From Erythrobacter sp. (lineage in GTDB: Bacteria; Pseudomonadota; Alphaproteobacteria; Sphingomonadales; Sphingomonadaceae): a DNA stretch of 64,000 bases. Where the stretch lies: positions 129,115-193,114 of the forward strand of contig JAPYPR010000002.1 of NCBI GenBank assembly GCA_029937545.1. The letters run 5' to 3'. The notes under the pieces are model-generated. The model saw only the letters and a program-made list of their open reading frames with translations. It had not been told where the DNA came from and made no database searches. Position numbers and translations under genes: made by a program. Shown here piece after piece: positions 7,916 to 28,390 of the stretch. How positions within the stretch are numbered: position 1 is the first letter of the stretch; each line of letters starts with the position of its first letter.

Positions 7916-7972
7916 TGGTCGGGGAGAGAGGATTCGAACCTCCGGCCCCTGCCTCCCGAAGACAGTGCTCTA
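7916..7972 (-). repeat. Distal att repeat: 57-bp duplication of the tRNA-Pro 3' part
   Basis: Base-for-base identical to 28314-28370; lacks the tRNA 5' 20 nt. Confidence 0.96.
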
Positions 7973-8617: not shown

Positions 8618-9676
8618 TCATAACCGACGCGCAAGCGACTTGATCCACGACATCGCGGTTTCGATGGCCCAATCAGTCTGCTCAGTAGCCAACTCAGGAA
8701 TCGTGTCGGTGCCTGGTCCATGTGCAAACGGGTTCCGAAGATCCGAGAACATCTGTTTGAGCATATCTGCTTCCCATTTAGCCAGAAACCGCGGATCTTT
8801 GGCTAATTCGTTGATCAGCCTATGCCCGAACAGCACTTTCTCTCCTGGATTAAGCCTGCTGAAGACGATCTTCATACAACTCTCTAGCGCGCACACTGCA
8901 TGGAAAGGGGCAGTGCGATCCCGCTTGTCGCGCCGATCAATCGCTTCCTGCATTTGCTCCTCGACGCTGTTCCACAAAGGCTGCGCGACGATTTGCCAGA
9001 ACGGCTTGGCCACATTGGCTTCCATTAACTCGTCACCGGCAAAGTGCAGAAGGCCATTGGAGTAGACGAGATTGAAACCTGCAATTCGAAGACGCTGGTT
9101 CAACTCTTCTACGAGATTAGCGTAGCCGTAGACGATCTTTTTATGAGCGGCAGTGGTAGAATTCACCAGTGAGCCTGGAACACGCAGAGCGCCGGGACGC
9201 GAATCCGCAGCTTCCTCGGAACTGCGGGCCTTGGCCAGTTTTAGCGGAAAGTCAGCCTGAGCCTTCCGGACTTGCTCGCCGCGAATTCGAAAAGCCAATT
9301 CGACGAATGAGAGCCTCAGCTTGACGTAGAAATCAGCATCATTCTTGGTCGCGTCGAACTGCTCCTTCATGAAGTTCGCTACGATCATGTTAGGCTTGTG
9401 TTTCAAGCTGTTCTGAGCGCCGTTGCGCTCCTTATAAAAGTAATATTTGGGCGAGAGGTAATCGACGCCGGTCTCAATCGCCAGCTTATCATGCACGATC
9501 TTAAGGTTGCGCACAGAGGGATCGGTCATGTCGTCACTTGGTTCGGATTTGCCAAGCCAGAGCATGTCACCCATGAGCTTATTAGCCTGGTGGAAGAAAA
9601 CCTGTTCGTCAGAGCCTACCGCTTCGGCAATCCGGACGTCCTTGTAGCGGCGAAAGAAAACGTCGGTAATTGCCAT
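8618..9676 (-). CDS. AbiJ-like protein: AbiJ_NTD4-like N-terminus plus C-terminal HEPN RNase domain (putative abortive infection effector)
   Basis: Starts MAITDVFFRRY (resembles AbiJ NTD4 starts, from recall); C-terminal LRNPFAHG fits the HEPN R-x4-H motif; sits in defence cargo. Confidence 0.7.
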   Translation of the reverse strand: MAITDVFFRRYKDVRIAEAVGSDEQVFFHQANKLMGDMLWLGKSEPSDDMTDPSVRNLKIVHDKLAIETGVDYLSPKYYFYKERNGAQNSLKHKPNMIVANFMKEQFDATKNDADFYVKLRLSFVELAFRIRGEQVRKAQADFPLKLAKARSSEEAADSRPGALRVPGSLVNSTTAAHKKIVYGYANLVEELNQRLRIAGFNLVYSNGLLHFAGDELMEANVAKPFWQIVAQPLWNSVEEQMQEAIDRRDKRDRTAPFHAVCALESCMKIVFSRLNPGEKVLFGHRLINELAKDPRFLAKWEADMLKQMFSDLRNPFAHGPGTDTIPELATEQTDWAIETAMSWIKSLARRL

Positions 9677-10036
9677 GCTGGAGTTTTCCCGTGGTGTGTA
9701 GTCGATTAATTGCATTAAGAAGCAACTGTCCGGAAAATGACTGACATCAGAATGCGTTGCTGTCACCTGTTCAATCCCACACGAATGGAAGGCATCAGGT
9801 CTTTCGCTAGTCTTTCGAACGATCGATATTCGGGTGGTTAGCCGATCGGAAGGAATTGGGCCGGGATCGGATAGGTGGTTTGCCAGCGATAAGGGGCAAG
9901 CGGGTCACTGGCCGCCGACGATCTTTGGATAAATTAGTCCGATTCCCCAACTGATCTTGGCCGTTCAGCAACTTTTCTCTCCGAGCTGGCTGGCAAATCT
10001 GAATGAGCTTGTCTCTCGCCAAAAGGCATCTCCAAT

Positions 10037-10051
10037 GTTCCAATTATGTTC
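10037..10051. promoter_or_regulatory. Alphaproteobacterial LexA (SOS) box GTTC-N7-GTTC
   Basis: GTTC-CAATTAT-GTTC is an exact consensus match, 100 bp upstream of the dGTPase ATG. Confidence 0.7.
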
Positions 10052-10151
10052 CAATCGGTTTAGGCACCGATCTTCGGTGAATGCGCGTTTGGAATTGCGA
10101 GGCTGTGGCCCTATTCGAGCCTCTGAAGAAAAACGATAATGGTGGATTCTT

Positions 10152-11570
10152 ATGGCGACGATTTGGTCTAATCGAAGAGCGAATGAACTGCATGATAGCC
10201 CGGACGGTGCCGAACCCGATCCGGTTCGGTCGCGTTTTCAGCAGGACTATGACCGGCTGCTCTTCTCGACGCCCGTTCGCCGATTGTCGGACAAAACCCA
10301 GGTTTGGCCGATGGATGACAACGACGGCGTGCGAACCCGGCTAACTCACTCGCACGAAGTGGCCAATCTCGCGCGCTCGATCGGCACCCGAATCTTTACA
10401 GCGAATGCGGGACTGTTTTCTGGGGCAGACCTTCATCAAGTAATCCAGCCGATGCTTTCCGCGATCGGTCTCGCCCATGATCTAGGCAATCCGCCGTTCG
10501 GACATCAGGGGGAGGCCGCGATAGGCCGCTGGTTCGAACGTCGTAAGGAATGGATCTTCACCAATCATGACAAAGGCGCGCGCGGTTTGCCGACCGCAAT
10601 TCCCGATAGTCTTCATGCAGAGTTCCTCAAGTTCGATGGCAACCCGCAGACGCTTCGGCTGATTACCAAGCTTCAGACGAACATCGCTCATCTGGGCCTC
10701 GATCTCACTTCGGCAACGCTGGTCGCGGCGATTAAGTATCCCGTTGGCGCTTCCAACCGCGACAAGAATAATCCGATCGCCAAGAAATATGGCTATTTTG
10801 AAGCGGAACGCGGGCTTGTGGACGGGCTTCGTAAAGAAACCGGATTGGGTGAAGGGCAGCGCCATCCGCTCACTTGGATCATGGAAGCTTGCGATGACAT
10901 TGCCTACTCGGTTCTCGACGTCGACGACGCGATGAAGAAGGGCGTCCTCTCACCAGACGATGTGCTCGCGAGCCTACGGGCTGACCCAACCACTTCCTCG
11001 CAAGCCGCAGTAACGAAGGCTCAATCCAAGTTCGAGGCGGTTGAGGCCGCAGGCAGGCGTCCGGAACTGTCGCGTGACATCAAGATCGGATTTCTGCGGG
11101 CATATCTAATTGAGGCCCTAATTGAACATGCAAGCGACGGCTTTGTTGCCGCAGGAGAGGCCATCACATCCTTCTCACATCGCACCCCGTTGATGGACGA
11201 CAGCACCCTGTGTGAAAAACTCAAGTCTCTCGCCCGGCAGCATGCATTCGGTAATTCAGGTGTGTTGCAGATGGAGGCGCGCGGAGCAGAAGCGATTGAC
11301 GGCCTTGCGACCGCCTTCTGGGAAGCGATCCACGACCGATCATCGGAGGACTTCAATGACATCTTGGCCCGCCGATCCGGAGCGAAAAACAAATATGTCT
11401 TCGCGCTGATTAGTCAAAATTACCTTGAGGACGCATCGCGCGCTGCGAACGCCGACGGCATCTCTGCGTCGGTTCGTTACCGTGAGCTCCGCCTGCTGAC
11501 AGACATGCTGTCGGGCATGACTGACACTTTCACGATCAAACTCTGGGACGAGTTGAAAGGCATGCGATAG
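10152..11570 (+). CDS. dgt: HD-domain dGTP triphosphohydrolase (dGTPase), putative anti-phage type
   Basis: RSRFQQDYDRLLFS, RTRLTHSHEV, LAHDLGNPPFGHQGE (HD), DGNPQ, RHPL..MEACDDIAY, D..SGMTD. Confidence 0.93.
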   Translation: MATIWSNRRANELHDSPDGAEPDPVRSRFQQDYDRLLFSTPVRRLSDKTQVWPMDDNDGVRTRLTHSHEVANLARSIGTRIFTANAGLFSGADLHQVIQPMLSAIGLAHDLGNPPFGHQGEAAIGRWFERRKEWIFTNHDKGARGLPTAIPDSLHAEFLKFDGNPQTLRLITKLQTNIAHLGLDLTSATLVAAIKYPVGASNRDKNNPIAKKYGYFEAERGLVDGLRKETGLGEGQRHPLTWIMEACDDIAYSVLDVDDAMKKGVLSPDDVLASLRADPTTSSQAAVTKAQSKFEAVEAAGRRPELSRDIKIGFLRAYLIEALIEHASDGFVAAGEAITSFSHRTPLMDDSTLCEKLKSLARQHAFGNSGVLQMEARGAEAIDGLATAFWEAIHDRSSEDFNDILARRSGAKNKYVFALISQNYLEDASRAANADGISASVRYRELRLLTDMLSGMTDTFTIKLWDELKGMR

Positions 11571-12347
11571 GTGACACCTGCGGAAACACTACCGAAGCTA
11601 AAGCGCCGCATCGACGATTATCTGTGGCGGGAGGATGGGCTGCCGATCCAGCGATTACGTGACATATTGGCGACGAGATTCACGCCCCTGGGGCCGGTCG
11701 CCATTATCGGCGGCTTGGTCCGCGATATTGCACGCAAAGGAAAGGTCGGCTTCAGGTCTGACATCGATCTGGTGATTGATGCCGAGCCAACGCGCGTCGC
11801 TGCGCTGGCCGCTGCACTGGATGCTACGCCAAATCGCTTTGGCGGCTTCGCTTCGGTCCATCCGCACTGGAAGGTAGACTTTTGGTCCCTGCCAAACACT
11901 TGGGCTTCAGCCGTAGGACTAGTGCGCACAGACTCGTTAGCAGATCTCGTCCATACCACTTTCTTCGACTGCGATGCGATCTGCTACGAGGTGCAAAAGC
12001 GCAAGATTCATGCCCTACCGGGATATCTCGAACGGCTGACTGAGCGCACCGTCGACATCAATCTGTTGCCCAATCCTTCAATCGACGGAAACCTTTTGCG
12101 GGCTGCTCGGCGCATCCTACTCTGGCACTTTCGTCCTGGCGCGGAGCTACGTGCGTTCATCGAGCGCGAACTAAACGAGGAGTCGTTTGAGCGCATTGTC
12201 GCAACTGAGCAGAACATTCATTCGAACGATATCCTCGGCGCATTTAATGGGCCGCAGCATCTCGCCGAAGTTTTGCTAGGGGATGAAATGCCGACCCAGT
12301 TTTCTGGTTTCGGCAAGCAGCTAGAGCTTCCCGGTTTAAATGAGTAG
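11571..12347 (+). CDS. Stand-alone class II (CCA-adding/poly(A) polymerase head-like) nucleotidyltransferase
   Basis: G47-G48-L-V-R51-D52...D64-I-D66 signature, WKVDFW (candidate third Asp), TTFFDCDAI where CCA enzymes have RDFTINA; 258 aa with no body/tail; GTG immediately follows the dgt stop. Confidence 0.75.
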   Translation: MTPAETLPKLKRRIDDYLWREDGLPIQRLRDILATRFTPLGPVAIIGGLVRDIARKGKVGFRSDIDLVIDAEPTRVAALAAALDATPNRFGGFASVHPHWKVDFWSLPNTWASAVGLVRTDSLADLVHTTFFDCDAICYEVQKRKIHALPGYLERLTERTVDINLLPNPSIDGNLLRAARRILLWHFRPGAELRAFIERELNEESFERIVATEQNIHSNDILGAFNGPQHLAEVLLGDEMPTQFSGFGKQLELPGLNE

Positions 12348-12680: not shown

Positions 12681-12791
12681 CCGTTCCCGACAACGATCCG
12701 GGCGGTGTCCTCCAGCCTAAATGCTTCCGGAAGGCGAAGAATCGACTGCGGCTATCTTGCGCATCCGAGAACAAAAGCGGATCATATACGC

Positions 12792-15722
12792 ATGGGCGCG
12801 ACGCGGCAAAACAACGAGGATCAACCTCTATACCAGCATCAGCTGGAGGCCATCCTGCGCGGCATCAAACTTGAGGAGCTCGAGGCCATCGGCGCTCTAT
12901 GGAAGGTCGGTTATCGCAAGCCCCAAAATTTGGAAACAAACGCTCGATCAGTCCGGGAACGATCTGCAGCAGGTGCGGGTCGAGTAGTGGATTTCAATAT
13001 CCCGAGCCCACTGACCGGCAGGGATCGACAAGGCGGTGATCGCCGCGTCCCTCATGTTTCGATCAAACCGATCCAAGCAACGGGCCCTCGTATCAAGGGT
13101 GAGAAGCTACTTAAGGGAAAGGGACGCGAGCGCCAAAGCGGATCGCAGCATATCGATTACTTGGCAACGGGCGCCAGGCTCACGATAGGTTTCCATCTGG
13201 ACTATCTCCGCCGACAGTTCGAGAGCCATGATCCGGGCGGGGACCTCCACATCGACATGCTCGATGAGCAGGTGATGCGGGCCGAGCAGAACCGGTTATC
13301 ATACCACAGCAATATCCCCGGCGGGATCGAGCGCCACAAATCCCTGTTCGATGCGGCCGAACGCTGCGAACCTAAACCAACGCGCTATCACCTGAAGGTA
13401 AACACAGCAGCGCTCGCTGCCCTGGAAGATCTTGTCGAGGCTACAGGCGCCTCGTTCCTAGTGCAGCGCGTGGTCGACCAATTACGAGCAGACCGCGCAA
13501 AGCGGAAAGCCTTGGCGACCGCGAAAAAACAGCGCTTCAAAGAATTCCGGGCCACGGTCGCATCGGGATCGTGGAAAGAAGTAACCGACTGGCTGAAGGA
13601 ACTGGACGATCACCCGCAATTGAAGGGTATGGTATCCTGCAAGGAGGGCCGCGCCGGCCGCGTGCAGTTTCGAGTGGTATTAGAGTTGCCCGACGGTCTG
13701 ACTGCCGCGGAGCGTTATACTGTCATGCGGGACTTTTGCGATGAGCTTGGTGCTGATGGGCACATGGTTGTCGCTGCCATCCATCAGCCCGACCAGACAA
13801 ACGACAAGCGCAACTACCACATCCACGTCGATTTCTACGATCGGCCGGCCAAGTGGCTGGACGAGCACGATTGCTGGGATTTCGAATACAAGGTCCGGAA
13901 GAACGGAAAGGACACCTATCCTCTCCGGCAAAACAAGGTGCGATATCCGAAACCTCCGGCACGCCTCTTCCGGGAACGTTACATCCGGATCGTCGAGCGC
14001 GTCCGCAATGGTCGTCCCGATATTGCCGAGTTTCTCTTGGGGACCTATCAGGACAACCACATCGACCTGACACCGCTCGATCACATGGGGCCGCGCGCCA
14101 TCGGATTGGAGAAGCGCGGGGTCGTCACCGCTGTCGGGACTGAGAACGCGCGACGCATCATTTCGGATGAAATGCGGCATGCCGAAAAACAGGCCCGGAC
14201 CGAATATTTAAACGAGATCGAGGCGGTGCTCCAAATGCTTCGATCCGCCACAAGCGATAAACATGCCTCCGATGCGCTATTGCGCTTCATCGATCTGCGC
14301 AAAAAGATCTCCGAGCGCCGGCTTCAGGCGGAGTTGGGCAGAATTACCGTCAGAATGACGCGGTCGCGCGCGGACGCCGTGATCAGGACGCTGACGCCGG
14401 AACCGGGCCGCCCAGTGACACCAAGAAAAGGCGATGCCGCCCTGCTCAAGAACGCCCGGGCTCATGTCGCCTGGCTCGAGAGCCATGCACCCGGCGAAGA
14501 CATGATCGCGGCGGAGCAGCGACTTTTGGATGATCTGGAGAAAGCCGCCGCGGAAGCAAAAGCGAAAGTCCTGGCAGTGTGTTCAGAGCCTACCGCAGGC
14601 CAATCCGTAGCGGTTCAGGACGTCAACGAGCCTGACGTTTCAACCTTCGAGAAGAAGCAGACGAAACCGTCACAGTTTGACGAGTTGAAACGCCAGCGCC
14701 TTCATTCCTGGTTGGATAAGCACATCGAGGACCCGGCTTGCCTTCGGATGGAGCCGTCCGCCTTTCTTCGCGGAGAACGGATGCCGAAGGCTATTCGCAC
14801 TCTCATGGCGCAATTCGCGCATGAGCCGGAGTTCGTGAACCGATTGAGAGCGGAACGCGCGCGAAGATCGCTTCCTTCGCCCACGGCCAGTGTCGTAGAA
14901 CAGCCGGTCTCAAGGTCCCTTCCAACGTCTCCGTCTTTGGGTTCCGAGCCAACGTCGCATCCTAAGCTGAATGGATCTCGCGGTGGCCTACTGATTAGCA
15001 CTTCAGCGAAACCGCAGTCAGACGTGCAATCAAGCCGTAATCCGTCCGGGACCATCAATCCAGCGAGCGTCCGAGGGGATCACGGCGGATCGCCAACGGA
15101 CCCCGAGAGGCACGAAAATAGCCGGCTGATGCAAACGACAGCATCGGTCAAACCGGAGCCACATAGCAGCAACCTCTTCCACGAGAGCAGAGCTACTGCG
15201 GCTCAGTTCATATTGATGCATCAGAAAATACAGGGGAGGAAGAAACGGAGACGATCGCCTGACCCAGTTGGCTTTAACCGATCGGAGCAATCTTATGAGC
15301 GGGACGATCACGAACTGAACAGTCCTGGCGAGCAGGAAGTGCAAGCAGACCGGCTTCGTCGTGCTGTCCGGAAGGAAGCGATCAATGGAACGCCCCTTGT
15401 CACGACGGGGCACTCTACTGGTCAGGGCATTCAACCACACACAGACGCAAACGTTTCGGATGATGCGAAGAATGACGATGGTCGTGCGAGGATCGAACCA
15501 CGTGATCCAAGTATGCGAAAACCATCGGGTCCGGATCGTGTTATCGGCTCACCCAGAGTAACCGATCCGCACTCCAAGCGAGAGACGAATGGTGTTCAAG
15601 CAGATCAGAAGCCAATCGCGGCGACCGGACCATCCAAGGGATCGCCACCGTTGCTTCGAGCGAAGGGGCGAGATGATGATAGCACACCAGTGCCAGAATC
15701 ATCGAGGGGACGTGGCCGCTAG
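12792..15722 (+). CDS. MobA/MobL (MOBQ-like) relaxase with a long low-complexity C-terminus
   Basis: HIDYL/HLDYL (candidate catalytic Tyr), VVLELPDGL, AAIHQPD...NYHIHVDFYDRP (3H motif); P/S/R-rich tail ending SRGRGR. Confidence 0.8.
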   Translation: MGATRQNNEDQPLYQHQLEAILRGIKLEELEAIGALWKVGYRKPQNLETNARSVRERSAAGAGRVVDFNIPSPLTGRDRQGGDRRVPHVSIKPIQATGPRIKGEKLLKGKGRERQSGSQHIDYLATGARLTIGFHLDYLRRQFESHDPGGDLHIDMLDEQVMRAEQNRLSYHSNIPGGIERHKSLFDAAERCEPKPTRYHLKVNTAALAALEDLVEATGASFLVQRVVDQLRADRAKRKALATAKKQRFKEFRATVASGSWKEVTDWLKELDDHPQLKGMVSCKEGRAGRVQFRVVLELPDGLTAAERYTVMRDFCDELGADGHMVVAAIHQPDQTNDKRNYHIHVDFYDRPAKWLDEHDCWDFEYKVRKNGKDTYPLRQNKVRYPKPPARLFRERYIRIVERVRNGRPDIAEFLLGTYQDNHIDLTPLDHMGPRAIGLEKRGVVTAVGTENARRIISDEMRHAEKQARTEYLNEIEAVLQMLRSATSDKHASDALLRFIDLRKKISERRLQAELGRITVRMTRSRADAVIRTLTPEPGRPVTPRKGDAALLKNARAHVAWLESHAPGEDMIAAEQRLLDDLEKAAAEAKAKVLAVCSEPTAGQSVAVQDVNEPDVSTFEKKQTKPSQFDELKRQRLHSWLDKHIEDPACLRMEPSAFLRGERMPKAIRTLMAQFAHEPEFVNRLRAERARRSLPSPTASVVEQPVSRSLPTSPSLGSEPTSHPKLNGSRGGLLISTSAKPQSDVQSSRNPSGTINPASVRGDHGGSPTDPERHENSRLMQTTASVKPEPHSSNLFHESRATAAQFILMHQKIQGRKKRRRSPDPVGFNRSEQSYERDDHELNSPGEQEVQADRLRRAVRKEAINGTPLVTTGHSTGQGIQPHTDANVSDDAKNDDGRARIEPRDPSMRKPSGPDRVIGSPRVTDPHSKRETNGVQADQKPIAATGPSKGSPPLLRAKGRDDDSTPVPESSRGRGR

Positions 15723-17359: not shown

Positions 17360-18268
17360 TCATGCAGCCCAATGCTGCGTATGATAGATCGCCGAATAAT
17401 CAGCGACCTCGTAAGGCTCCACGCCAAGGCACTCTAGGAAGAACCGCTTTTCGCGGTGTCGCTCATCATCTTCGCACGTGGGATACACATACCAAGCTGG
17501 GGGACGCTCCCCACCACGCTTTTTGTAAAGGGCAGCCCGTTGAATTAGCAGCCAGCGCAACCAAACTTCCTGTCCATCTAGGGCGATGCCAAACACGACG
17601 AGGGGCATCTTGAACAAAATATCTAACCAAGTGTCTTCGCCAGCCCAGTGAGGAAACTCACGCGCGTCGAGAACCCAAGGACGGCATCGTGTCACGCAGC
17701 CCATGTAATCGCTAAGGCCCAAACGGATGCTTTGGATATGGGAAATGAAGCCGTTAATATGCCAGACGCCAAACCCATCGCATGGCCGATTAAGAGGCTC
17801 GCGTGCGAAATATTTTTCCCACGGGTAGTAGGCAGTCGATCGTTTCCTGCTCCCGCGTGGACGAAACAAGGATTGGCGTTCTGCTCGGACAGCATCAGAA
17901 AGCGCAAGATCGAAGTTCGTGGTAAGGATGGGTGAACCATGCCTGCGTGCCCATTCCGCAATTTCTCTGTGGTGTGGTGAAGGTTCCCAGTTTTCCATCC
18001 CATCACAAAATTGCCGCTTTAATGGATACGCCTCGCTGGCGGTCTTTGGCTCTCTCTCCGTAGACCGCCCCAAATCAATCAGGTCATAGAACTCCGGCAT
18101 CGCGAGGTTCTTTGCCCTCTCCGGCGAAGGGAACTCGTTGTCTCTTGCCAGGCGCTCAACGAGTGCGTTCCAGCTCTGCCCACCGTTCGGATAAAGGTGA
18201 ACGCCGTTGCCGATTAGCAAGGCAACTCGCCCACCGGCACGGCGCCGCAGTTTGTCGATCACGGACAA
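17360..18268 (-). CDS. SIR2-like (SIR2_2) domain protein, putative NADase defence effector
   Basis: ALLIGNG..SW..LV, ILTTNFD, VWHING, IRLGLSDY, LVVFG.ALD: the SIR2_2 motif order. Confidence 0.75.
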   Translation of the reverse strand: MSVIDKLRRRAGGRVALLIGNGVHLYPNGGQSWNALVERLARDNEFPSPERAKNLAMPEFYDLIDLGRSTEREPKTASEAYPLKRQFCDGMENWEPSPHHREIAEWARRHGSPILTTNFDLALSDAVRAERQSLFRPRGSRKRSTAYYPWEKYFAREPLNRPCDGFGVWHINGFISHIQSIRLGLSDYMGCVTRCRPWVLDAREFPHWAGEDTWLDILFKMPLVVFGIALDGQEVWLRWLLIQRAALYKKRGGERPPAWYVYPTCEDDERHREKRFFLECLGVEPYEVADYSAIYHTQHWAA

Positions 18269-18326: not shown

Positions 18327-18965
18327 TTAGCTGGTCTTTGGAGGCGTGTCGGTAGGCTTCCAATGCATTGAAACAGCCTTGTGTCTCACATGGAAGGGAA
18401 GGCCGGATGAGCGGTGCTTGTGTTGTGAGAAAAAGTGCAGCGGGTTACCGTCGGTTGATTTCTCGGCTTTCACATCGGCATTTTTCTCGAGTAGTTTTGT
18501 CCGCCACTTCTCGAGCATGCTGGCCGCGTCCGCGACATAGCAATAAATGATCACGGCACCGTGATCCTGGCCTAGGACGCCAGTGGAATATCGCCTAGAT
18601 AGCTGCTTGAAGCCTTTGTTGAGCCACTCGTAGGCATCGTGTTCTTTTGCTTCGGCGAGCCAAAGGAAGAGATCTTTCCCTTTGATGACTATGTCACAAT
18701 GACCTCCGACATTGGCGTCATGGCTGGCATCAAACCCAGCCGTTGTCAGCATATTGCAAATGTCGACCGTGATTTGGTCCTCGCCCAAACCCTGCTTCTT
18801 ATTCTTCGATTGCTCTAGTAAGTTGCAGGCATAGTCGATCCCCTTGTTGACTGCTGTCACACGTTGCGGATGGGTTTCAGCGAGCCAGTAATCGATTGAT
18901 GCTGCTGCCGGGGTGCCGTCAAACTGCGCCCTTAACTGTTCGATCGTGGGGGACGGGGCGCTCAC
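18327..18965 (-). CDS. PD-(D/E)XK-like nuclease (212 aa)
   Basis: EDQIT...GGHCDIVI...WLAEAKE = E...D...ExK arrangement; GTG overlaps the upstream TGA (GTGA). Confidence 0.65.
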   Translation of the reverse strand: MSAPSPTIEQLRAQFDGTPAAASIDYWLAETHPQRVTAVNKGIDYACNLLEQSKNKKQGLGEDQITVDICNMLTTAGFDASHDANVGGHCDIVIKGKDLFLWLAEAKEHDAYEWLNKGFKQLSRRYSTGVLGQDHGAVIIYCYVADAASMLEKWRTKLLEKNADVKAEKSTDGNPLHFFSQHKHRSSGLPFHVRHKAVSMHWKPTDTPPKTS

Positions 18966-21900
18966 TTGTCATTCTCGCCGAAGAGTTCACCTAGTGGGTG
19001 GAAGACGGGATGAACGTGGGCTGCCGCCTGTTCCACCATCTCACCCGAGTTTGGGTGGGTCACGGTGTCGCTAGTCAGAAGACGTTCGATCTCTTCGCTA
19101 GAGAGTGGATGGCGCTGGCCCTCTTTGTCGACGAACTCAGCTCCGGTTTTTAGCGCCGTAAAGCGAGACTGGGTCAGGATCGTCAATGCGGCGACGATTT
19201 CCTCGGTGACCTCATCGGTGTTCAATAAGCCTAGAACGTCGTTGATACTCAGCACTCGGTTCGGTGCGCTGGAATTGGAAAGCTTTTCAAGAATTGATAT
19301 TGCAAGGTTTGCAGCCGTTCCGCTTTGCCAGTTATCCTCGATGCCCTCCCGTATTTGCCTAAGCGTCATTGATTGAGGCGATCCGTCAGCATTCGCTGTT
19401 TCAGCGATCTCCAGCCTCGGCAGGGCGCGGACGATCTTCATCGTTTCCAGGCTGACGGTGATGACGCGCTGGAACAACTTGAGGGGGTAGGCCGGGTCAC
19501 CCATCGTCTCGTTCGCGAAGTCGTTGGCGTCCCATGTGATACCGCTCTTCTTGTCGGTCTTCACGCCCTGGCGCTCGATCACCCATTCGAGGGCGGGCTT
19601 GCCGTTAACCACATAGTCGTAGGCTTCGATCGGAATGCCGGTAATGGTGATGTTGGAATTGTAGATCACAGTGGTCTTGTCGGCTTCCGGCTTGCCCTCA
19701 GCGTTGCGAACCTTGTGGAAGCGCATCTTTTCGACGCGGTAATACTTCACCGGATCGGGAATATGCGCAAGATCGAGCGATCCTTGCGCAATGGTAATCG
19801 GGGCAAGTGGCGCGCTATGGTAGTCGCAATGGAGGTCGGCCAATTGCCTGCCGGCTTTGACGAATTTCCAGAAATCAGCAACGCTTTTCAGCTTGGGAAT
19901 ACGCGGCAATTCCTGCCTGAGATTGTCCTCAAAATCGGAACAATAATCATCATGATGGAAAAGCGCATATAGGAAGTAGAACACATCTTCCTTGGCGATC
20001 TTTTCGTCAGCGTAATCGGCTTGGAAGCGCGAAAGCGCCACATCGGAAACGCCATCCAAGGTGACATCTCCACTGAGATCAAGTTCGCCCTCAGTCGATG
20101 AGGCCCCATCGTATAACTTCAACGGAAAGCACTGAGAGCCCGCCATGTCACCGAAGTGGATGCTGGGAAGAATGTCCGTCATCAATGCCGAGAAGCGTCC
20201 CCGGAAGCCCGGACCGGACAGGCAGATGACACGGTTGGGCGTGTCGGGTGTCGGAAAGTATCGATCCGTGAGGTATTTGCTCCAATTCAACCGGCTGTCC
20301 ATATAGAGGAACTGGGGGCTGAACGGTCGATAATTGGCGAGCCGAATCTTGTTCGCATCAAATTGGTATTCGCGACCGTTTGCTAGATCGCCGAGGGTCT
20401 TCTGGCACCACTTGAACTTGGTATCGTCGTCGTCGGGCGTGAAGTTGGAAGGTAGCGAATTGAAGTAGGCAATGGCCTTGGTGGTTATGTCCGCGAGTTT
20501 GGCCCTTGATGGATTGTATGTCCAAATGTCGCGATTGGTTTTCATGCCCGCCGAGTAGGTGGGGAAAATGCTGGGCTCACTCCCATCCTTGGCTGCGATC
20601 GCGAGAAAACCCGAGTATTTTTCAGAACCCTGGTTGATCCAAATGCCGTTCTCGTCGGGCTCAATGTCCTCCCATCCGTTCGAGCGCCCGATGCCGCCGA
20701 TGCTTCCAAAAGCTCTGATCCGTTCGAGTTTTTCCGCTTGGCTCAGATAATCACCAATATCGTGGAACCGAATTACTCGCTCGGTGGCGGCGGGATTTTT
20801 GACAAGGACTGAGATCGCGATTGGCGCTCGGCTCCCTTGACCGAATACATTGTCACGCTCCTTGCGGCGACGCTCTCCCGCAGTCCGCGCATTACCTCTC
20901 AGGTGGAAAATGTGGATCGACGAGAAATCTTCTTGGAAGCAATGCCGAAGGCCGTCTGTCACATTACCATCGACCCAGCCTCCGTTGCTGACAAAGGAAA
21001 CGATTCCCGCATCACCAATGCGATCACTCGCCCATCGAAAGGCGCGGATGTAGCTATCGTAAAGCGCGCGTTTGTTGGTCATTCGAGTTCGCGCCGCAAA
21101 GGTTTCGCGGATACGCTCGTCTAATTTGGGATAAACAACATTTGCCGCGTCATCGTTCGCGCTACTCTGGCCTACTGAATAGGGAGGGTTTCCGACGATA
21201 ACCTTGATGTCGAGTGCCTTTTGCCGCGTGCGCCTGTTTGAGTTGTCGGGCATCAGCGTGGCGAGCAAATCCTTGTCCTGCTCGTAAAGCTGGAAGGTGT
21301 CGGTCAGGCAGATGCCCTCGAACGGCTTGTAATCGCCCTCGGCCACGCTGTGGTAGGCGGCCTCAATGTTGATCGCCGCGATGTAGTAGGCGAGCAGCAC
21401 GAGTTCGTTGGCGTGGATTTCCTTCGCGTATTTCCGTTCAAGCTCCTCGGGCTTGATCAGGCCGGATTGCAGAAGGCGCGTGATGAATGTGCCAGTTCCG
21501 GTGAAGGGATCGAGGATGTGGACGCCCTCGCTGCCCAAGGTCTGGCCGAACTCGGATTGCAGTAGCTCGTCCACCGAGTGGAGGATGAAGTCCACCACCT
21601 CGACTGGTGTGTAGACGATGCCCAGGCGCTCGGTCATCTTCGGGAAGGCGTTGCGGAAGAACTTGTCGTAGAGTTCGACGATGATTTTCTGCTTGGCCTC
21701 GTCCTTGTCGATGCCCTCGGCGCGGCGACGAACGCTGGCGTAGAACCGCTTGAGGCTGTCGGCCTCCTTGTCGATGTTGTGGGCATCGAGTGTTTCAAGC
21801 ACCGTCTGCATCGCCTTGGAGACCGGGTTGTTCTTGGCGAAGCTGTAGTCTTCGAACAGCGCTTCGAAGACCGGGCGAGTGATAAGGTGCTGAGCAAGCA

Positions 21901-24247
21901 TTTCGATTGCCTCGCCTTCACCAATGCTCTCGTTCAGGTCATCCCGGATCTCGTCGAGGAAACCCTCGAAAGCCTCGCGCTCGGGAGTGCCGGGTTTTTC
22001 AACCAGGCCCTGGATGCGGTTGATGTGGGTCTGGGCGATCTTGGCGATGTCGGTCGCCCAATCCTCCCAGTAATCGCGCCGACCGCACTTCTTGACGATC
22101 TTGGCCATGATTGCCTTGGAGAACTCGTCGAACTCGAAGTTGTTCTGGAACGGGGTGTCGCCGCCCTTGGGCTTGCTGTCGCCGTCGCTACCGTCGTTCT
22201 CGTCTCCGCCTTCGCCGCCGCTGCCGATGTTGGAGCCGTTCTTGGCGGCATCCTTACGGGCGGGCAGCTTGTTGCTGACGGCGATCACCTCGATGTGGTC
22301 GCTAACATTGACACCCAAGCTGGCCTTGTTGATCATCGCATCGAAGCGTTCGTCGTGTGACCGCAGCGCGTTGAGGATTTGCCAGACGACGCGGTAACGC
22401 TCGTTGTCGTTGAGCGCGTCTTCGGGCGTCACACCGGCAGGAACGCCGATGGGCAGGATGACATAGCCCATGCGCTTACCCTCGGCGCGACGCATGACGC
22501 GACCCACCGACTGGACGACATCGATCTGGCTCTTGCGCGGGTGCATGAACAGGATCGCGTCGAGCGCCGGGACATCGACGCCTTCCGAGAGACAGCGAGC
22601 ATTGGACAGGATGCGGGCTATCTGGTCGCCATGGACTTCCTTGAGCCAGTCGAGGTGCGCGGTGCGCTCTTTCGCGCCCATGGTGCCATCGACGTGGTGG
22701 ACCTGCACTTCGAGCGGCTCGATGTCTCCCAGAGCTTCCTGGCCCTCCTCCGATGCGAGGTATTCGCTCACCACCGACTGGAACTCGGTGCGGATCAGTT
22801 TGGAGGCGGCGATGTCCTTGCAGAAGGCGAGCGCGCGCTGCATCGGCTGCCCGTCGCCCGCGAGTTCTTCCTTGAGCCCCGATTTGACCAGCGCCTTGTA
22901 GCACCCGATGATCTTGGTCGCGTCGTCGAGCTTGAGTTCGCTGGTGCCATCGGCAAGCCGGTTTTGAACACCACCGCTGACCATTGCTTCGTCCACGGCG
23001 AGCACGAGCACCTTATAGTCGGTGAGCAGGCCGTTCTCGACTGCCCAACCGAAGCCCTTGGTCAGGAAGGTTTTGCCGTATTTGGACTCATCATCCATGT
23101 CGGCAAGTTCAGCAGACAGATCGTTCGCCTTCGCGCGTGCTTTTTCGCCAAAGACTCGCGGCGTAGCCGTCATGTAGAGCCGCTTTTTCGCAGCGATGAA
23201 GCTTTGGTCATGGACCTTGACGAAGTTGCTTTCGTCTTCGTCTACAAAGGTAACGCCGGTGGTGCGGTGCGCTTCATCGCAGATGATCAGGTCGAACTCT
23301 GGAAAGCCGTGCAGCTTCTGCGCATCCGAGATCACTTGGATCGACTGATAGGTCGAGAAAACCACCGTCATCCGGTCTGGCGCGGCATGCGATGCCTTGC
23401 TTGCGAGCTTGGTGGCGTTGGTTGTGGCCGGATAGTCGAGGTCGTGAAGCTCGATCTCGGCTATATCGTCCTTATCCTTGCGGCGCTTGCCCACGGCTGC
23501 GTCCGAGCAAACCGCGTAGGACCGGAGCGGCGTCTGGCTGTCGATAGTCCACTCACGGATAGTCTGGCTCATCAGCGCTAGGGACGGCACCAGCACTAGC
23601 ACATTGCCGCCCTTGCTGACGAGTTCTTCGGCGATTTTTAGGCCGGTGAAGGTCTTGCCTGTGCCGCAAGCCATGATGAGCTTGCCGCGATCGGCTTCGC
23701 GGAATCCGTCGCGCACACAATCCAGCGCCTCGATCTGGTGAGGCCGCAGCTTCTTTGGTTCAGCGACCTTCACTTCTTCGCGCTGAAACCAGGCCGCCCA
23801 GTCTATCGGGCTGGCCTCAAGTCGTTCGAGACCGATCGTGGTGATGTTCAGGTCGTCGAGCAGCGCCTCTGCATTGGGGCTCCACGGCGCACCGGTGGTC
23901 TCGATGATGATTCCGCGCGAGAAGTGCTTTTGCTGGGACGAAGACAGGAAGCTGTCGATGTCCTTCTTCTGGATACGGTGGCCCTCTGCGAAGAACTTGC
24001 ACTGGATCGCGCAGAAGCCGTTTTTCTCCCTGATCTTGGCCACGGCATCGATGCCGATGTCTGCTGCGGACAGGTTGTGCTGTTTCGCCCAATCTGAAAA
24101 CAGCCATGCGTCTTCGTATTCTTGGGCCATGCCAGGGTCGGCCTTGATGAAGGCGACCGCAAGTCGCTCGAAATAGGTGCCTTTCTCGCGCTCAGTTTTC
24201 GATGATGTCCGGAACTGTTCGAGAAGCTGGCGAAGCGGCGTAGACAA
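18962..24247 (-). CDS. Type ISP (LlaBIII/LlaGI-like) restriction-modification enzyme with an extra ~135-aa C-terminal domain
   Basis: Mrr-like nuclease DIGID...AIQCK; SF2 helicase MACGTGKT, DEAHR, QSVGRVMR; N6-MTase LDPFTGTGTF and GNPPY; ISP C-terminal YDYVVNGKPALEWVIERQ...MKIVRALP; likely TTG start at 24247 with a GGGGG SD. Confidence 0.92.
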   Translation of the reverse strand: MSTPLRQLLEQFRTSSKTEREKGTYFERLAVAFIKADPGMAQEYEDAWLFSDWAKQHNLSAADIGIDAVAKIREKNGFCAIQCKFFAEGHRIQKKDIDSFLSSSQQKHFSRGIIIETTGAPWSPNAEALLDDLNITTIGLERLEASPIDWAAWFQREEVKVAEPKKLRPHQIEALDCVRDGFREADRGKLIMACGTGKTFTGLKIAEELVSKGGNVLVLVPSLALMSQTIREWTIDSQTPLRSYAVCSDAAVGKRRKDKDDIAEIELHDLDYPATTNATKLASKASHAAPDRMTVVFSTYQSIQVISDAQKLHGFPEFDLIICDEAHRTTGVTFVDEDESNFVKVHDQSFIAAKKRLYMTATPRVFGEKARAKANDLSAELADMDDESKYGKTFLTKGFGWAVENGLLTDYKVLVLAVDEAMVSGGVQNRLADGTSELKLDDATKIIGCYKALVKSGLKEELAGDGQPMQRALAFCKDIAASKLIRTEFQSVVSEYLASEEGQEALGDIEPLEVQVHHVDGTMGAKERTAHLDWLKEVHGDQIARILSNARCLSEGVDVPALDAILFMHPRKSQIDVVQSVGRVMRRAEGKRMGYVILPIGVPAGVTPEDALNDNERYRVVWQILNALRSHDERFDAMINKASLGVNVSDHIEVIAVSNKLPARKDAAKNGSNIGSGGEGGDENDGSDGDSKPKGGDTPFQNNFEFDEFSKAIMAKIVKKCGRRDYWEDWATDIAKIAQTHINRIQGLVEKPGTPEREAFEGFLDEIRDDLNESIGEGEAIEMLAQHLITRPVFEALFEDYSFAKNNPVSKAMQTVLETLDAHNIDKEADSLKRFYASVRRRAEGIDKDEAKQKIIVELYDKFFRNAFPKMTERLGIVYTPVEVVDFILHSVDELLQSEFGQTLGSEGVHILDPFTGTGTFITRLLQSGLIKPEELERKYAKEIHANELVLLAYYIAAINIEAAYHSVAEGDYKPFEGICLTDTFQLYEQDKDLLATLMPDNSNRRTRQKALDIKVIVGNPPYSVGQSSANDDAANVVYPKLDERIRETFAARTRMTNKRALYDSYIRAFRWASDRIGDAGIVSFVSNGGWVDGNVTDGLRHCFQEDFSSIHIFHLRGNARTAGERRRKERDNVFGQGSRAPIAISVLVKNPAATERVIRFHDIGDYLSQAEKLERIRAFGSIGGIGRSNGWEDIEPDENGIWINQGSEKYSGFLAIAAKDGSEPSIFPTYSAGMKTNRDIWTYNPSRAKLADITTKAIAYFNSLPSNFTPDDDDTKFKWCQKTLGDLANGREYQFDANKIRLANYRPFSPQFLYMDSRLNWSKYLTDRYFPTPDTPNRVICLSGPGFRGRFSALMTDILPSIHFGDMAGSQCFPLKLYDGASSTEGELDLSGDVTLDGVSDVALSRFQADYADEKIAKEDVFYFLYALFHHDDYCSDFEDNLRQELPRIPKLKSVADFWKFVKAGRQLADLHCDYHSAPLAPITIAQGSLDLAHIPDPVKYYRVEKMRFHKVRNAEGKPEADKTTVIYNSNITITGIPIEAYDYVVNGKPALEWVIERQGVKTDKKSGITWDANDFANETMGDPAYPLKLFQRVITVSLETMKIVRALPRLEIAETANADGSPQSMTLRQIREGIEDNWQSGTAANLAISILEKLSNSSAPNRVLSINDVLGLLNTDEVTEEIVAALTILTQSRFTALKTGAEFVDKEGQRHPLSSEEIERLLTSDTVTHPNSGEMVEQAAAHVHPVFHPLGELFGENDK

Positions 24248-24525
24248 TTGGACCCCCATAAACGATATTTGGCGACGGTAGTGAGAAGACTCCTTGTCGC
24301 CAAGCATCACGCATGCATTCACACCGATTTTTGAGAGTTTTCCGAAGGTTATTAATAACGCAATGCGGCCACACGTTCCGGATGCGTCCCAACGATCACT
24401 AAGCGGACTGCAATTATCGGATCGTGCGTTCCCGTAAGTCGATCGTCCTGACGCACGGGAGTTGCACCAATTGAAAAAGACCGTTGTGTTACGCTCGATT
24501 TGTCGGCGTGAATATCTGCAAGATC

Positions 24526-25151: not shown

Positions 25152-25518
25152 ATCGCAAAAACCACCAGAATTGAAGATCGAATCTATCCGACGTCTGATC
25201 GATCCGGACGAAAGCGTTGTCGGCGCTTTAGCGCTCTAGAAAAAAGATCACGAGTTGCGGCCTGCCACCTAAAAGATTGTTGCATGGCAACATGTTACCG
25301 ATACTGTCGTTTGGTCCCCAATAACGCCACTATCGCTAACATCTTGCCCCAACAAGCCGACTTCAATTCTTATCGAAAAGTGGGCTGGCTGCAGAAAGAG
25401 AAATTTTGACCGGCGCAAATTTTTTGCGATAAGATGCTCTGAAAATGGGACTAATGGAAGAAAGTGACCGATTTGAGTGCCGCGTTGGCAATGCCGGCAA
25501 GGCGGTGGAGAGGTGAAA

Positions 25519-26823
25519 ATGACCGACGCGAAGCAAAATTTTGATTCTTGGTTGTTCAATGCTCGAGAAGGGAAATATCGGGCTGGCAGTGCGGTGAATG
25601 TCAGCGATACCGCTGATTTCGCCGTAGAGGGTCTTGTGCCTGCTACAGGCGTCTCAATGTGGTTTGGTCCAGGCTCAACCGGTAAAACGCAGATGCTTCT
25701 ATGGATGGCCGCTCACATTGCAGCGCCTGCGAATACAGGACCCCGCGATTGGCTTGGGGCTCGTATTCAGAAGAGGGGGCACGTATTATTTCTTTCAGCT
25801 GAAGATACCCGCGAGCACATCTTTATTCGTATCGGCGGCATGGCGAAAGCTATGAAGGTCCAATTTCCGGAGATCGACGAGCATGGTCTCTGTGACCGCA
25901 TTCACGTCATCCCTTTCCTTAGTCTCGATGAAGCCGAGTTCGCGGCAAAAAGCCCGAGCCTATTCCAAGGCCATCGAAACGATTGGAACCCTTCACCTAC
26001 ATTGCTGGGTGTGGAGCAACTTATCGACACGTGGAACGCAGATCACGATCCTGACGACCAAATTGTCGCAGTCATCATGGACTCCGCGGTTTCGATGAGT
26101 GGTTTTGATCTTACAGATTCCGAAGCAACCACCGAATTCCTCTTCAGGATCAATAGAGTTTCCAATCGTCAGGGGGTCTTTTGGGCTATCGTCGGACACA
26201 CACCGAAAGGTGCCGGGATCAAAAATGATCCACTGGAAGGCGCTGCTGATCGCCTGAGGGGATCGGCGATGTGGTCGACAACGCCGCGCACTGTTGTCGA
26301 ACTGAGGATAGCAAGCGACACTGAGAATCTTACTGATATCTACCGCGCCTTTCCAACCCTCGGCAAGCGGGACATCGTCGTCGCGAATGTGGTAAAATCT
26401 AATTCCAAAGGTGCCGACTTCAAGCCACGCGTCCTCCGACGACTTTCAGAAGGCGCATTCGAAGACCTTACTGCCGACTACCCTGATATTTGCAGGTCTT
26501 GGAGCCCAATCGCCCCGGAGCCTCTGACGAGCTTCCAAGGTCGCAAGGCAGCGGTATGCGAAATGATTCGAACGGTCACAGATGGAGCCAGTGAAGGAGC
26601 AACCTTCAAGCGGGATCAATTGGAAGCTGAGTTTCAAAGGAACTCATCGAATTATCCGGCACTAGCAGATGTGATTGGACTATCCAGCCGTAAGCATGAG
26701 AAAAACGGAGACTCACTCGCTTATATTCTGCGCCTTCTGAAGGACGACGGTCTTATACAAGTCCAGAGGAACGGGCCTATTAAGGTTTTGGCCCTCAATG
26801 ACACGGCAAATTCAGCCGGATAG
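25519..26823 (+). CDS. AAA_25 / RepA-like RecA-fold helicase
   Basis: GLVP..GVSMWFGPGSTGKT, VLFLSAED, VIMDS, IVGHTPKG, LRGSAM. Confidence 0.8.
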   Translation: MTDAKQNFDSWLFNAREGKYRAGSAVNVSDTADFAVEGLVPATGVSMWFGPGSTGKTQMLLWMAAHIAAPANTGPRDWLGARIQKRGHVLFLSAEDTREHIFIRIGGMAKAMKVQFPEIDEHGLCDRIHVIPFLSLDEAEFAAKSPSLFQGHRNDWNPSPTLLGVEQLIDTWNADHDPDDQIVAVIMDSAVSMSGFDLTDSEATTEFLFRINRVSNRQGVFWAIVGHTPKGAGIKNDPLEGAADRLRGSAMWSTTPRTVVELRIASDTENLTDIYRAFPTLGKRDIVVANVVKSNSKGADFKPRVLRRLSEGAFEDLTADYPDICRSWSPIAPEPLTSFQGRKAAVCEMIRTVTDGASEGATFKRDQLEAEFQRNSSNYPALADVIGLSSRKHEKNGDSLAYILRLLKDDGLIQVQRNGPIKVLALNDTANSAG

Positions 26824-26876
26824 TAGATCTAAAAGTATCTTTCTGGGTGTGTGATAGCACACCTAGAGAGGAAAAT

Positions 26877-28313: not shown

Positions 28314-28390
28314 TGGTCGGGGAGAGAGGATTCGAACCTCCGGCCCCTGCCTCCCGAAGACAGTGCTCTACCAGGCTGAGCTACTCCCCG
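28314..28390 (-). tRNA. tRNA-Pro(CGG), integration site
   Basis: CGGGGAGTAGCTCAGCCTGGTAGAGCACTGTCTTCGGGAGGCAGGGGCCGGAGGTTCGAATCCTCTCTCCCCGACCA; 77-nt cloverleaf. Confidence 0.97.

Follow-up and report, generated by a model that had tools for sequence, protein, structure and literature searches.

A predicted, divergent Clover system on a tRNA-Pro island of Erythrobacter sp.

A dGTPase gene and a nucleotidyltransferase gene abut on a mobile island

The window analysed here is a 64,000-nt stretch of an Erythrobacter sp. contig, in which a gene for an HD-domain dGTPase is followed directly by one for a small nucleotidyltransferase. We refer to these genes as cloA and cloB, after the Clover anti-phage system to which the evidence below assigns them. 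The features of the locus are (window positions):

10037–10051, + strand: candidate alphaproteobacterial LexA operator, GTTC-N7-GTTC, ~38 nt upstream of the −35 element
10089–10116, + strand: candidate operon promoter, TTGGAA (10089–10094), a spacer of ~15–16 nt and CCTATT/CTATTC (10110–10116), 36 nt before the ATG
10152–11570, + strand: cloA, ATG start, 472 aa, predicted HD-domain dGTPase effector of a Clover system, TAG stop at 11568–11570
11571–12347, + strand: cloB, GTG start, 258 aa, predicted minimal class II nucleotidyltransferase (CCA/PAP head and neck type)
7916–7972, no strand: distal att repeat of the island, identical over at least 57 bp to the 3′ part of tRNA-Pro (28314–28370)
25477–26823: AAA_25 protein, adjoining tRNA-Pro
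26847–27239: HTH_17 protein, adjoining tRNA-Pro
27227–28222: tyrosine integrase, adjoining tRNA-Pro
28314–28390, − strand: tRNA-Pro(CGG), the integration site (ARAGORN), its 3′ 57 nt forming the proximal att repeat

The operon spans 2196 bp. At the junction, the end of cloA (...ATGCGATAG) runs without a gap into the start of cloB (GTGACACCT), so that the GTG abuts the TAG. The two genes are in the same frame, (11571 − 10152) being a multiple of three, which suggested a CloA–CloB fusion made by read-through of the TAG. In most relatives the two genes overlap in different frames, and we dropped the idea for that reason.

Between the att repeats, GC content is 52–58%, down from ~63%. The operon is cargo of a ~20.4-kb integrative mobilizable island at tRNA-Pro, in agreement with the initial annotation, which had placed the pair in defence cargo on a mobile element; the att repeats, the low GC content and the integrase beside tRNA-Pro all bear this out.

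A scan for E. coli-type consensus promoters and terminators returned nothing above shuffled sequences at the operon, and the candidate promoter was therefore taken from conservation across loci. When five related loci were aligned, the only strongly conserved upstream blocks were CTTGGAA and GCCTAT, the remainder being ~60% identical. We infer from this pattern that 10089–10116 may serve as the operon promoter. The putative LexA operator further upstream occurs at the matching position in the two closest loci (L001 and L002), with different spacers; most of the remaining 28 loci lack it, and one (L027) has a possible match. The background rate of the motif is 0.013 per 330 nt, and the genome's own lexA and recA each have a GTTC-N7-GTTC just upstream, in gene orientation.

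CloA is a homologue of the Clover effector

Clover pairs a CloA dGTPase with a CloB nucleotidyltransferase and was described in Salmonella enterica SA20044414 and E. coli H5 (Yamaguchi et al., bioRxiv 2025.07.09.663793, PMC12265719); CloA structures are available as PDB 9P8S–9P8V (PMC12265719), and the system is also covered in a review (PMC13434031). The first protein of the window pair had been called an HD dGTPase from its sequence, and profile searches agreed: it matched Pfam HD and HD_assoc, the PADLOC dGTPase model (4e-68) and TIGR01353 (283 bits, cut-off 152). All six catalytic residues are present (H66, H109, D110, D248, H118 and E121) and invariant in 31/31 clade members, matching the HD motif (H69, H117, D118 and D242) and HE dyad (H126 and E129) of Salmonella CloA.

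Among PDB sequences, the best matches were the Salmonella CloA entries 9P8S–V (titled 'DNTP triphosphohydrolase', eight chains each), with 289 bits and E 7.5e-85 over residues 6–471. Weaker matches were PA1124 (168 bits), E. coli Dgt (161) and the stand-alone SpdGTPase 9P8W (95). By BLASTP, the protein is 37% identical to Salmonella CloA over its full length (E 2e-100). The six top Foldseek hits of its structural model, which is a monomer only, were all titled 'Structure of CloA ...' (TM 0.80–0.84), but the fold comparison is weakly discriminating, as E. coli Dgt also reached TM ~0.8. For Clover membership we therefore relied on the sequence, its residues and the linkage of the two genes rather than on fold alone.

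The dGTP contacts (Q50, V51, R63, Q119, Y196, K212, D249 and Y252) and the dTTP-pocket residues (R44, D58, Q175, K262, S421, N423, T457 and F460) are kept in nearly all 31 clade members. Seven residues of the published dTTP activator pocket (R47, D61, Q172, K256, S418, N420 and T449) are identical here; Y452 is replaced by F460, keeping the aromatic ring, and A444, a main-chain contact, by M452. At the subunit interfaces, the dimer residue R46 is kept as R43, and H263, the pi-stacking residue of the Salmonella octamer, is D269.

The genome encodes a second, housekeeping-type dGTPase on a different contig. At six positions where this paralogue differs from CloA (F41, N75, R314, Q172, K256 and N420), the window protein sides with CloA, and in the tree it falls inside the CloA clade, far from the housekeeping enzyme.

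CloB is a minimal class II nucleotidyltransferase

The 258-aa product of cloB carries the motifs G47-G48-L-V-R51-D52, D64-I-D66 and T129-T-F-F-D-C-D135-A, all invariant or nearly so in the family. For comparison, we took Salmonella CloB from the operon at L031:5001-7203, whose 2203 bp and D71/D73 both agree with the published description (PMC12265719). The two proteins matched by BLASTP (E 2e-19), with D64/D66 aligned to D71/D73, the validated catalytic residues of Salmonella CloB (PMC12265719), and by hhalign (99.7%, E 6.7e-27, 233 columns), although identity to the tested proteins is only 24–27%. Fifteen positions are invariant in 34 CloB proteins of four lineages (G47, G48, R51, D52, D64, D66, N88, F90, G92, D103, W105, W111, T130, D135 and R177). 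They include the Pol-beta active site pattern [D/E]h[D/E]...h[D/E]h, represented by D64-I-D66 and V-D103-F.

A search of PDB sequences with phmmer gave a chance match only (E 0.27) and no CloB structure appears to have been deposited, so the fold was taken from an AF2 model (pLDDT 89.6). Each of the top 41 Foldseek matches in the PDB was a class II CCA-adding, A-adding or PAP enzyme (E 2e-8 to 1e-4). The matched part is confined to head and neck, about a third of the targets (TMq ~0.5, TMt ~0.3), which indicates that body and tail are missing. Like class II CCA-adding enzymes and poly(A) polymerase I, CloB thus has the head and neck fold and the GGxVRD...DxD motif; in contrast to them, it lacks the tRNA-binding body and tail, and the ribose-sensing RRD and base-templating EDxxR motifs are replaced by TTFFDCDA and NPSxxGNxxR (NPSIDGNLLR). 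Its expected product, by analogy with Clover, would also differ, being a free dinucleotide and not an RNA 3′ extension. The initial annotation had read the protein as a class II CCA/poly(A)-polymerase-type enzyme without the tRNA-binding part, with the signature at G47–D52 and D64/D66 and with TTFFDCDA in place of the base-specifying motif. The motifs stand at those residues and the structural matches uphold both the class and the truncation; the class holds at the level of fold, the Pfam PolyA_pol (PF01743) score being 17.7 bits, under the 23-bit threshold.

The two genes are linked across Proteobacteria

The initial annotation had called for a survey of nucleotidyltransferase homologues for recurring dgt linkage, and such linkage was found. 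In 30/30 related loci from Alpha-, Beta- and Gammaproteobacteria, a dGTPase gene lies directly upstream of the nucleotidyltransferase gene, with gaps of +1 to −56 nt; the Salmonella cloA/cloB overlap is 47 nt. This linkage is far beyond chance. Plasmids of Phaeobacter and B. thuringiensis carry the pairing as well. A search for a conserved third gene found none of the 11 genes of the window's island again at the 30 loci, and a three-component system was rejected on that ground. A phage-borne origin of CloB was likewise rejected, since a phage collection held no CloB homologue.

The pair is best explained as a divergent Clover system

The initial annotation had proposed a candidate new defence system, knowing of no named combination of a dGTPase with a class II nucleotidyltransferase. 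That claim does not hold: the annotation had itself listed a match to an already named system as refuting it, and clear homology links the two proteins to CloA and CloB of Salmonella. From these sequence comparisons, the pair is assigned as a divergent copy of Clover, not a new kind of defence. Very probably, it is an intact Clover anti-phage system, with its function predicted by homology with the Salmonella and E. coli systems. The basis is the homology of both proteins, the conserved residues, the strict linkage, the accessory status and the island context.

The similarities to Clover extend over the whole operon. In each case cloA comes first and cloB abuts or overlaps it, and the operon length of 2196 bp compares with 2203 and 2200 bp for the tested operons (PMC12265719). 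The CloA proteins have 472 aa here and 471 aa in the published system, the CloB proteins 258 and 277 aa. CloA retains its HD motif and HE dyad, the residues that contact dGTP and the activator pocket for dTTP; CloB retains the DxD (D64/D66 for D71/D73) and the third carboxylate D103. The operons are sited in defence islands or mobile elements. The differences are the identity of 37% (CloA) and 24–27% (CloB), the octamer-interface H263, which is D here, and part of the contacts to the CloB-made ligand.

In the published system, phage-raised dTTP switches CloA on, while p3diT, a dinucleotide made by CloB, holds it off (PMC12265719). Salmonella CloA forms an octameric 'four-leaf clover' assembly (PMC12265719). 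In its genetics, mutation of CloB is toxic and mutation of CloA costs the system its defence (PMC12265719); the toxicity of CloB inactivation in these homologues indicates that CloB restrains rather than triggers. For the window pair, dGTPase activity, activation by dTTP, the nature of the CloB product and phage defence are all inferred from this literature. By this analogy, CloA (10152–11570) would be a dGTP triphosphohydrolase that is inactive alone. During infection, phage enzymes would raise cellular dTTP and switch CloA on allosterically, and active CloA would then deplete dGTP and so block phage DNA replication. CloB, with the predicted catalytic residues D64, D66 and D103, would constitutively make a thymidine dinucleotide 5′-triphosphate (p3diT or a close analogue). 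This would bind a pocket at the CloA dimer interface beside the dTTP site and raise the dTTP threshold, sparing uninfected cells from self-inflicted dGTP depletion. The abutting stop and start would keep the inhibitor-maker co-expressed with the toxic effector. Of the two roles earlier proposed for a nucleotidyltransferase signal, holding off the dGTPase is the published Clover mechanism, with p3diT inhibiting CloA, and triggering it conflicts with the toxicity of CloB mutants in homologues.

Two groups of known systems invite comparison. A stand-alone anti-phage dGTPase was reportedly described by Tal et al. 2022. Stand-alone enzymes such as SpdGTPase (Shewanella putrefaciens, 9P8W; NF041026) share with CloA the HD-domain dGTP triphosphohydrolase and defence by dGTP depletion. 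SpdGTPase is constitutively active and hexameric, without a partner (PMC12265719), whereas the window protein and its counterparts in the 30 related loci are always paired with CloB; the window protein scores 95 bits to 9P8W against 289 to CloA, and its 186 bits on NF041026 lie below the curated cut-off of 400. The second group, Hailong (HalB oligo-dA) and Panoptes/MISS (2′3′-c-di-AMP), follows the same logic, in that a nucleotidyltransferase constitutively makes a nucleotide restraining a toxic effector until infection relieves or overrides it (PMC12265719). However, their effector is an ion channel or membrane protein and not a dGTPase, their nucleotidyltransferase subfamilies and signals differ, and what activates Clover is a rise in a metabolite, dTTP, and not the disappearance of its inhibitor.

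The predicted inhibitor pocket is remodelled in the window subclade

In the published p3diT pocket, R34 and N181 contact the triphosphate at the 5′ end, whereas base T1 is recognised by Q311 (PMC12265719). Of its ten contacts (T25, R29, R34, D37, R38, F41, N75, N181, Q311 and R314), six are kept here (as R26, D34, R35, F38, N72 and R316) and four are changed (T25P, R34Q, N181D and Q311G). All 119 Salmonella-type CloA proteins have R34, N181 and Q311; within the window clade these residues are replaced in 26/28, 28/30 and 18/30 members, respectively. Further changes accompany these replacements: N306R (27/30), S309K (30/30; both substitutions are also found in the window protein), E33Q and M312Y. 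In the CloA tree, the window clade and the Salmonella-type CloA are sister clades, the former consisting mainly of proteins from Sphingomonadales and other Alphaproteobacteria and including some from Beta- and Gammaproteobacteria.

The systematic replacement of R34, N181 and Q311 raises the possibility that the inhibitory ligand or its binding mode differs. The strongest competitor to a standard Clover mechanism is a Clover-type system with changed signal chemistry (Q/H34, D181, R306, K309 and a variable 311). Either the inhibitor made by CloB would not be p3diT, differing from it for instance in 5′ phosphate state or first base, or p3diT would bind to a rearranged CloA pocket with another affinity. 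The loss of two triphosphate contacts and the T1 reader, otherwise fixed, together with the co-occurring changes between sister clades, speaks for it. However, the readers of the T2 base and sugar (D34, N72, F38 and R316) are conserved, as are two of the three pocket arginines (R26 and R35), every CloB active-site invariant is common to Salmonella CloB, and p3diT was also found from a 'distantly related' Xanthomonas CloB (PMC12265719). We regard altered chemistry as rather unlikely. With similar reserve, we suggest that the rewired-pocket subclade (R34 to Q/H, N181 to D, N306 to R, S309 to K, Q311 variable) may conceivably use a non-p3diT inhibitor or another dTTP threshold, and that in the window's lineage the operon is perhaps SOS (LexA)-controlled. 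If so, immunity by dGTP depletion would be coupled to DNA damage or to the induction of prophages. The rewiring offers a concrete, inexpensive test of whether Clover signal chemistry varies by lineage.

Other readings and consequences for annotation

The remaining explanations depart from Clover altogether. It is very improbable that the locus is a new system unrelated to named ones, with a nucleotidyltransferase product that triggers the dGTPase. This reading draws on database results: PADLOC-DB 2.0 (2023) and NCBIfam gave no match for CloB, neither having a CloB model, and the effector was called only a generic dGTPase, so that to standard annotation the locus resembles a stand-alone dGTPase beside a hypothetical protein. 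The homology of both proteins to the characterised CloA and CloB refutes it; in addition, gene order and operon length match, and CloB inactivation is toxic in homologues (PMC12265719).

We give equally little credence to a tRNA/RNA-tailing toxin (MenT/AbiEii-like or CCA-like) with the dGTPase as antidote or shaper of its substrate pool; the tailing toxin and the shaped substrate pool had been raised as alternatives by the initial annotation. The fold is indeed of the class II CCA-adding type, but only head and neck are present (258 aa, TMt ~0.3), RRD and EDxxR are replaced, and the homologue genetics run the other way: toxicity follows from mutating CloB, and loss of defence from mutating CloA, making the dGTPase the toxic partner and the nucleotidyltransferase the protective one (PMC12265719). 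Least probable of all is a housekeeping dgt beside an unrelated small nucleotidyltransferase gene by chance: Dgt-family enzymes are common core genes, but this reading is refuted, since the other, housekeeping-type dGTPase lies on a different contig, the window copy sits in a low-GC island with att repeats, and the pairing is kept in 30/30 loci whose remaining neighbours all differ.

No long-standing question hinges on the cloA–cloB locus, and its identification as a predicted Clover system matters mainly for annotation, since PADLOC-DB 2.0 and NCBIfam 20 call a generic dGTPase only and leave CloB 'hypothetical'. With CloB unmodelled in defence-finders, Clover systems like the window pair are scored as single-gene dGTPase defence or missed. 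The CloB family is large, with ~1,500 clusters at 50% identity, 1,082 of them at E ≤ 1e-10.

Assignment of the gene pair to the Clover system

The window carries a dGTPase gene and a nucleotidyltransferase (NTase) gene, referred to here as cloA and cloB:

10152..11570, + strand, cloA: Dgt-family HD dGTPase, 472 aa, ORF ending in TAG
11571..12347, + strand, cloB: NTase, 258 aa, GTG start, ORF at zero gap after the cloA TAG

The ORF listing and sequence confirmed in every detail the initial annotation's observation that the dGTPase TAG is followed with zero gap by the GTG of a 258-aa NTase. The dGTPase matched Pfam HD and HD_assoc, TIGR01353 (283 bits; cut-off 152) and the PADLOC dGTPase model (4e-68). 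The claimed NTase motifs GGxVRD, DxD and TTFFDCDA were present as stated (GGLVRD at residues 47-52, D64-I-D66 and TTFFDCDA at 129-136). This protein scored only 17.7 bits with Pfam PolyA_pol (cut-off 23) and matched no PADLOC or NCBIfam model.

Clover is a two-gene dNTPase–NTase defence system described in a 2025 bioRxiv preprint (Yamaguchi et al., PMC12265719), to which a review (PMC13434031) gives the publication year 2026. More than 650 copies are reported in proteobacteria, Bacillus, Clostridia and Myxococcia, including one Methylobacterium example. The CloA dGTPase has no activity by itself and is switched on by dTTP, whose level T5-like phages raise. CloB makes p3diT, an inhibitory dinucleotide that holds CloA in check by binding a neighbouring allosteric pocket. 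Mutating the HD motif of CloA abolishes defence, and the D71A/D73A changes in CloB cause toxicity (PMC12265719).

The best PDB sequence matches of the window dGTPase were CloA 9P8S-V (four entries, eight chains each; 289 bits over residues 6-471), compared with 161 bits for E. coli Dgt and 95 bits for the stand-alone anti-phage SpdGTPase (9P8W). The CloA codes are printed as 8P9S etc. in the paper's data statement; Foldseek titles show that 9P8S-V are CloA. The Salmonella CloA sequence was rebuilt from the PDB alignment, and the exact protein (P0121) and its contig (L031) were found. The operon (L031:5001-7203) spans 2203 bp, the length given in the paper, and the protein downstream of CloA has 277 aa, with D71 and D73 matching the paper's CloB. 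The window and Salmonella CloA proteins share 37% identity over their full length. The window NTase aligned with Salmonella CloB by BLASTP (E 2e-19), pairing D64/D66 with D71/D73, and by profile-versus-sequence hhalign (99.7%, E 6.7e-27) over 233 columns, i.e. the full length. CloA structures were also the top six Foldseek matches (TM 0.80-0.84) of an AF2 model of window CloA (pLDDT 85.4), although fold alone cannot set CloA apart, since E. coli Dgt is nearly equal in fold. In a tree, all CloA proteins lay far from the housekeeping paralogue and formed two clades, the Salmonella type (including a Phaeobacter plasmid copy) and that of the window.

Judged from sequence, the window pair belongs to the published Clover system, as a divergent copy. 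The proposal of a new defence system is refuted for this reason, both proteins being homologous to Salmonella CloA and CloB. The mechanism proposed with it, an NTase signal holding off the dGTPase, was essentially correct, as in the published suppression of CloA by p3diT. What is still of interest is how the inhibitor pocket has been remodelled in this subclade, along with possible LexA control.

CloB fold and active site

With an AF2 model of the window NTase (pLDDT 89.6, pTM 0.85), the first 41 Foldseek chains were class II CCA-adding enzymes, A-adding enzymes or poly(A) polymerases (E 2e-8 to 1e-4), followed by TENT5/FAM46, with CD-NTases only at E > 4e-3. The matches covered the query well but only about one third of the targets, and the NTase therefore corresponds to a head and neck without body or tail, as the initial annotation had read it. 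Fifteen residues were invariant in 34 CloB proteins from four lineages (G47, G48, R51, D52, D64, D66, N88, F90, G92, D103, W105, W111, T130, D135 and R177). D64, D66 and D103 fit the active-site triad cited for CloB, [D/E]h[D/E]...h[D/E]h (PMC12265719). Whereas class II CCA-adding enzymes have a ribose-sensing RRD motif, window CloB has TT-F-F-D-x-D instead, which would be consistent with a deoxynucleotide substrate.

Spread and linkage of the pair

Close homologues of the window NTase number at least 249, every one annotated 'hypothetical'. In an exhaustive profile search, 1,522 clusters (50% identity level) passed E <= 1e-3, and 1,082 of these, nearly all of 230-300 aa, reached E <= 1e-10. 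Scanning species-representative genomes identified 30 loci in Alpha-, Beta- and Gammaproteobacteria (NTase identity 88% down to 37%), all 30 with a dGTPase homologue directly upstream on the same strand. An annotated dgt also precedes distant plasmid NTase homologues in Phaeobacter (31%) and Bacillus thuringiensis (25%).

Across the related loci the two ORFs abut or overlap (gaps +1 to -56 nt). In the window, and in two of these loci (L003 and L023), cloA and cloB share a reading frame with the TAG alone between them (11568-11573). Since most relatives overlap out of frame, a functional read-through cloA–cloB fusion is unlikely.

No other island gene of the window recurred in the 30 loci, even where the NTase is 88% identical, indicating that the Clover pair travels as a self-contained module. 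Its neighbours there were varied and rich in integrases and MmeI/Eco57I/ResIII restriction-modification genes, with AbiEii-type AAA_21, a conflict-system NTase and a T4SS coupling protein also found.

Beside Salmonella Clover lies a five-gene cluster (L031:489-4105; small ORF, PfkB–nucleoside 2-deoxyribosyltransferase fusion, QueC-like gene, ORF224 and Ogg-HhH glycosylase), which is absent from the window. The same cluster adjoins the pair in three window-clade loci (L014:9221-12810, L018:2393-5982 and L022:9355-13002) from three genera; amino-acid identity is 31-62% and the orientation varies. Possibly this cluster is a guanine/7-deazaguanine-related module that moves together with the dGTP-depleting system.

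Predicted remodelling of the CloA inhibitor pocket

The paper's functional residues were mapped onto window CloA and 30 relatives. The metal/HD residues and HE dyad (H66, H109, D110, D248, H118 and E121) and the dGTP contacts were invariant. The dTTP activator pocket is preserved (R44, D58, Q175, K262, S421, N423, T457 and F460 for Y452). At six sites (F41, N75, R314, Q172, K256 and N420) the window protein follows CloA where the genome's separate housekeeping dGTPase, encoded on another contig, departs.

The p3diT pocket is partly preserved in window CloA (R26, D34, R35, F38, N72 and R316) and carries the changes T25P, R34Q, N181D and Q311G (Salmonella numbering). All 119 Salmonella-type CloA proteins have R34, N181 and Q311; the window's group systematically replaces R34 (Q/H), N181 (D) and Q311 (G/Q/S/E), with E33Q, N306R, S309K and M312Y co-varying. 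Together with the tree split, these clade-wide changes point to a Clover of a sister subclade with a predicted rewired inhibitor pocket, whose ligand may differ. The low-confidence segments of the window CloA model (residues 41-65 and 176-181; remainder confident) coincide with the alpha3–alpha4 and alpha8–alpha9 switching loops, which are reordered by dTTP and p3diT (PMC12265719), a correspondence that is suggestive only.

Upstream region

SOS control is not a trait of the Clover family; from motif content, it is plausible in the window's lineage. A LexA-box-like GTTC-N7-GTTC lies at 10037-10051, ~100 nt ahead of the cloA ATG, and is common only to the two closest loci (L001 and L002), with differing spacers (background 0.013 per 330 nt). 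The same motif occurs just upstream of the genome's own lexA (L036, ~2232) and recA (L038, ~2584). An upstream alignment of five related loci also revealed conserved CTTGGAA and GCCTAT blocks with promoter-like spacing (10089-10116).

Island and genomic context

From roughly 8 to 28 kb of the window, GC content is 52-58%, down from ~63%. This region has the following features:

8618-9766, - strand: AbiJ-N-terminal-like gene, 382 aa, divergent from cloA (sub-threshold AbiJ_NTD4, 25.7 versus 34 bits)
12705-15722: MobA/MobL relaxase
17360-18268, - strand: stand-alone SIR2-like gene (SIR2_2 22.9 bits, just below the Pfam cut-off)
18962-24322, - strand: Type ISP restriction-modification enzyme, 1785 aa (Mrr_cat_2, ResIII/helicase, ISP coupler, N6_Mtase, Type_ISP_C)
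25477-26823: AAA_25 protein
26847-27239: HTH_17 protein
27227-28222: tyrosine integrase
28314-28390, - strand: tRNA-Pro(CGG) (ARAGORN)

The 3' 57 nt of tRNA-Pro(CGG) are repeated exactly at 7916-7972, and the tRNA and its repeat thus bound an island of ~20.4 kb, which also holds the Clover pair. ARAGORN found tRNA-Pro and tRNA-Asp and no other tRNA in window positions 1-35000. The description of the pair as defence cargo on a mobile element was borne out by the GC dip, tRNA-Pro repeat, integrase, relaxase and restriction-modification gene. The SIR2-like and AbiJ-N-terminal-like genes may add to this defence cargo. Just beyond the tRNA-Pro att site, outside the island, is thymidylate synthase (thyA, 28442-29428, + strand); as thyA is a core gene, it probably lies beside a dTTP-sensing system by coincidence.
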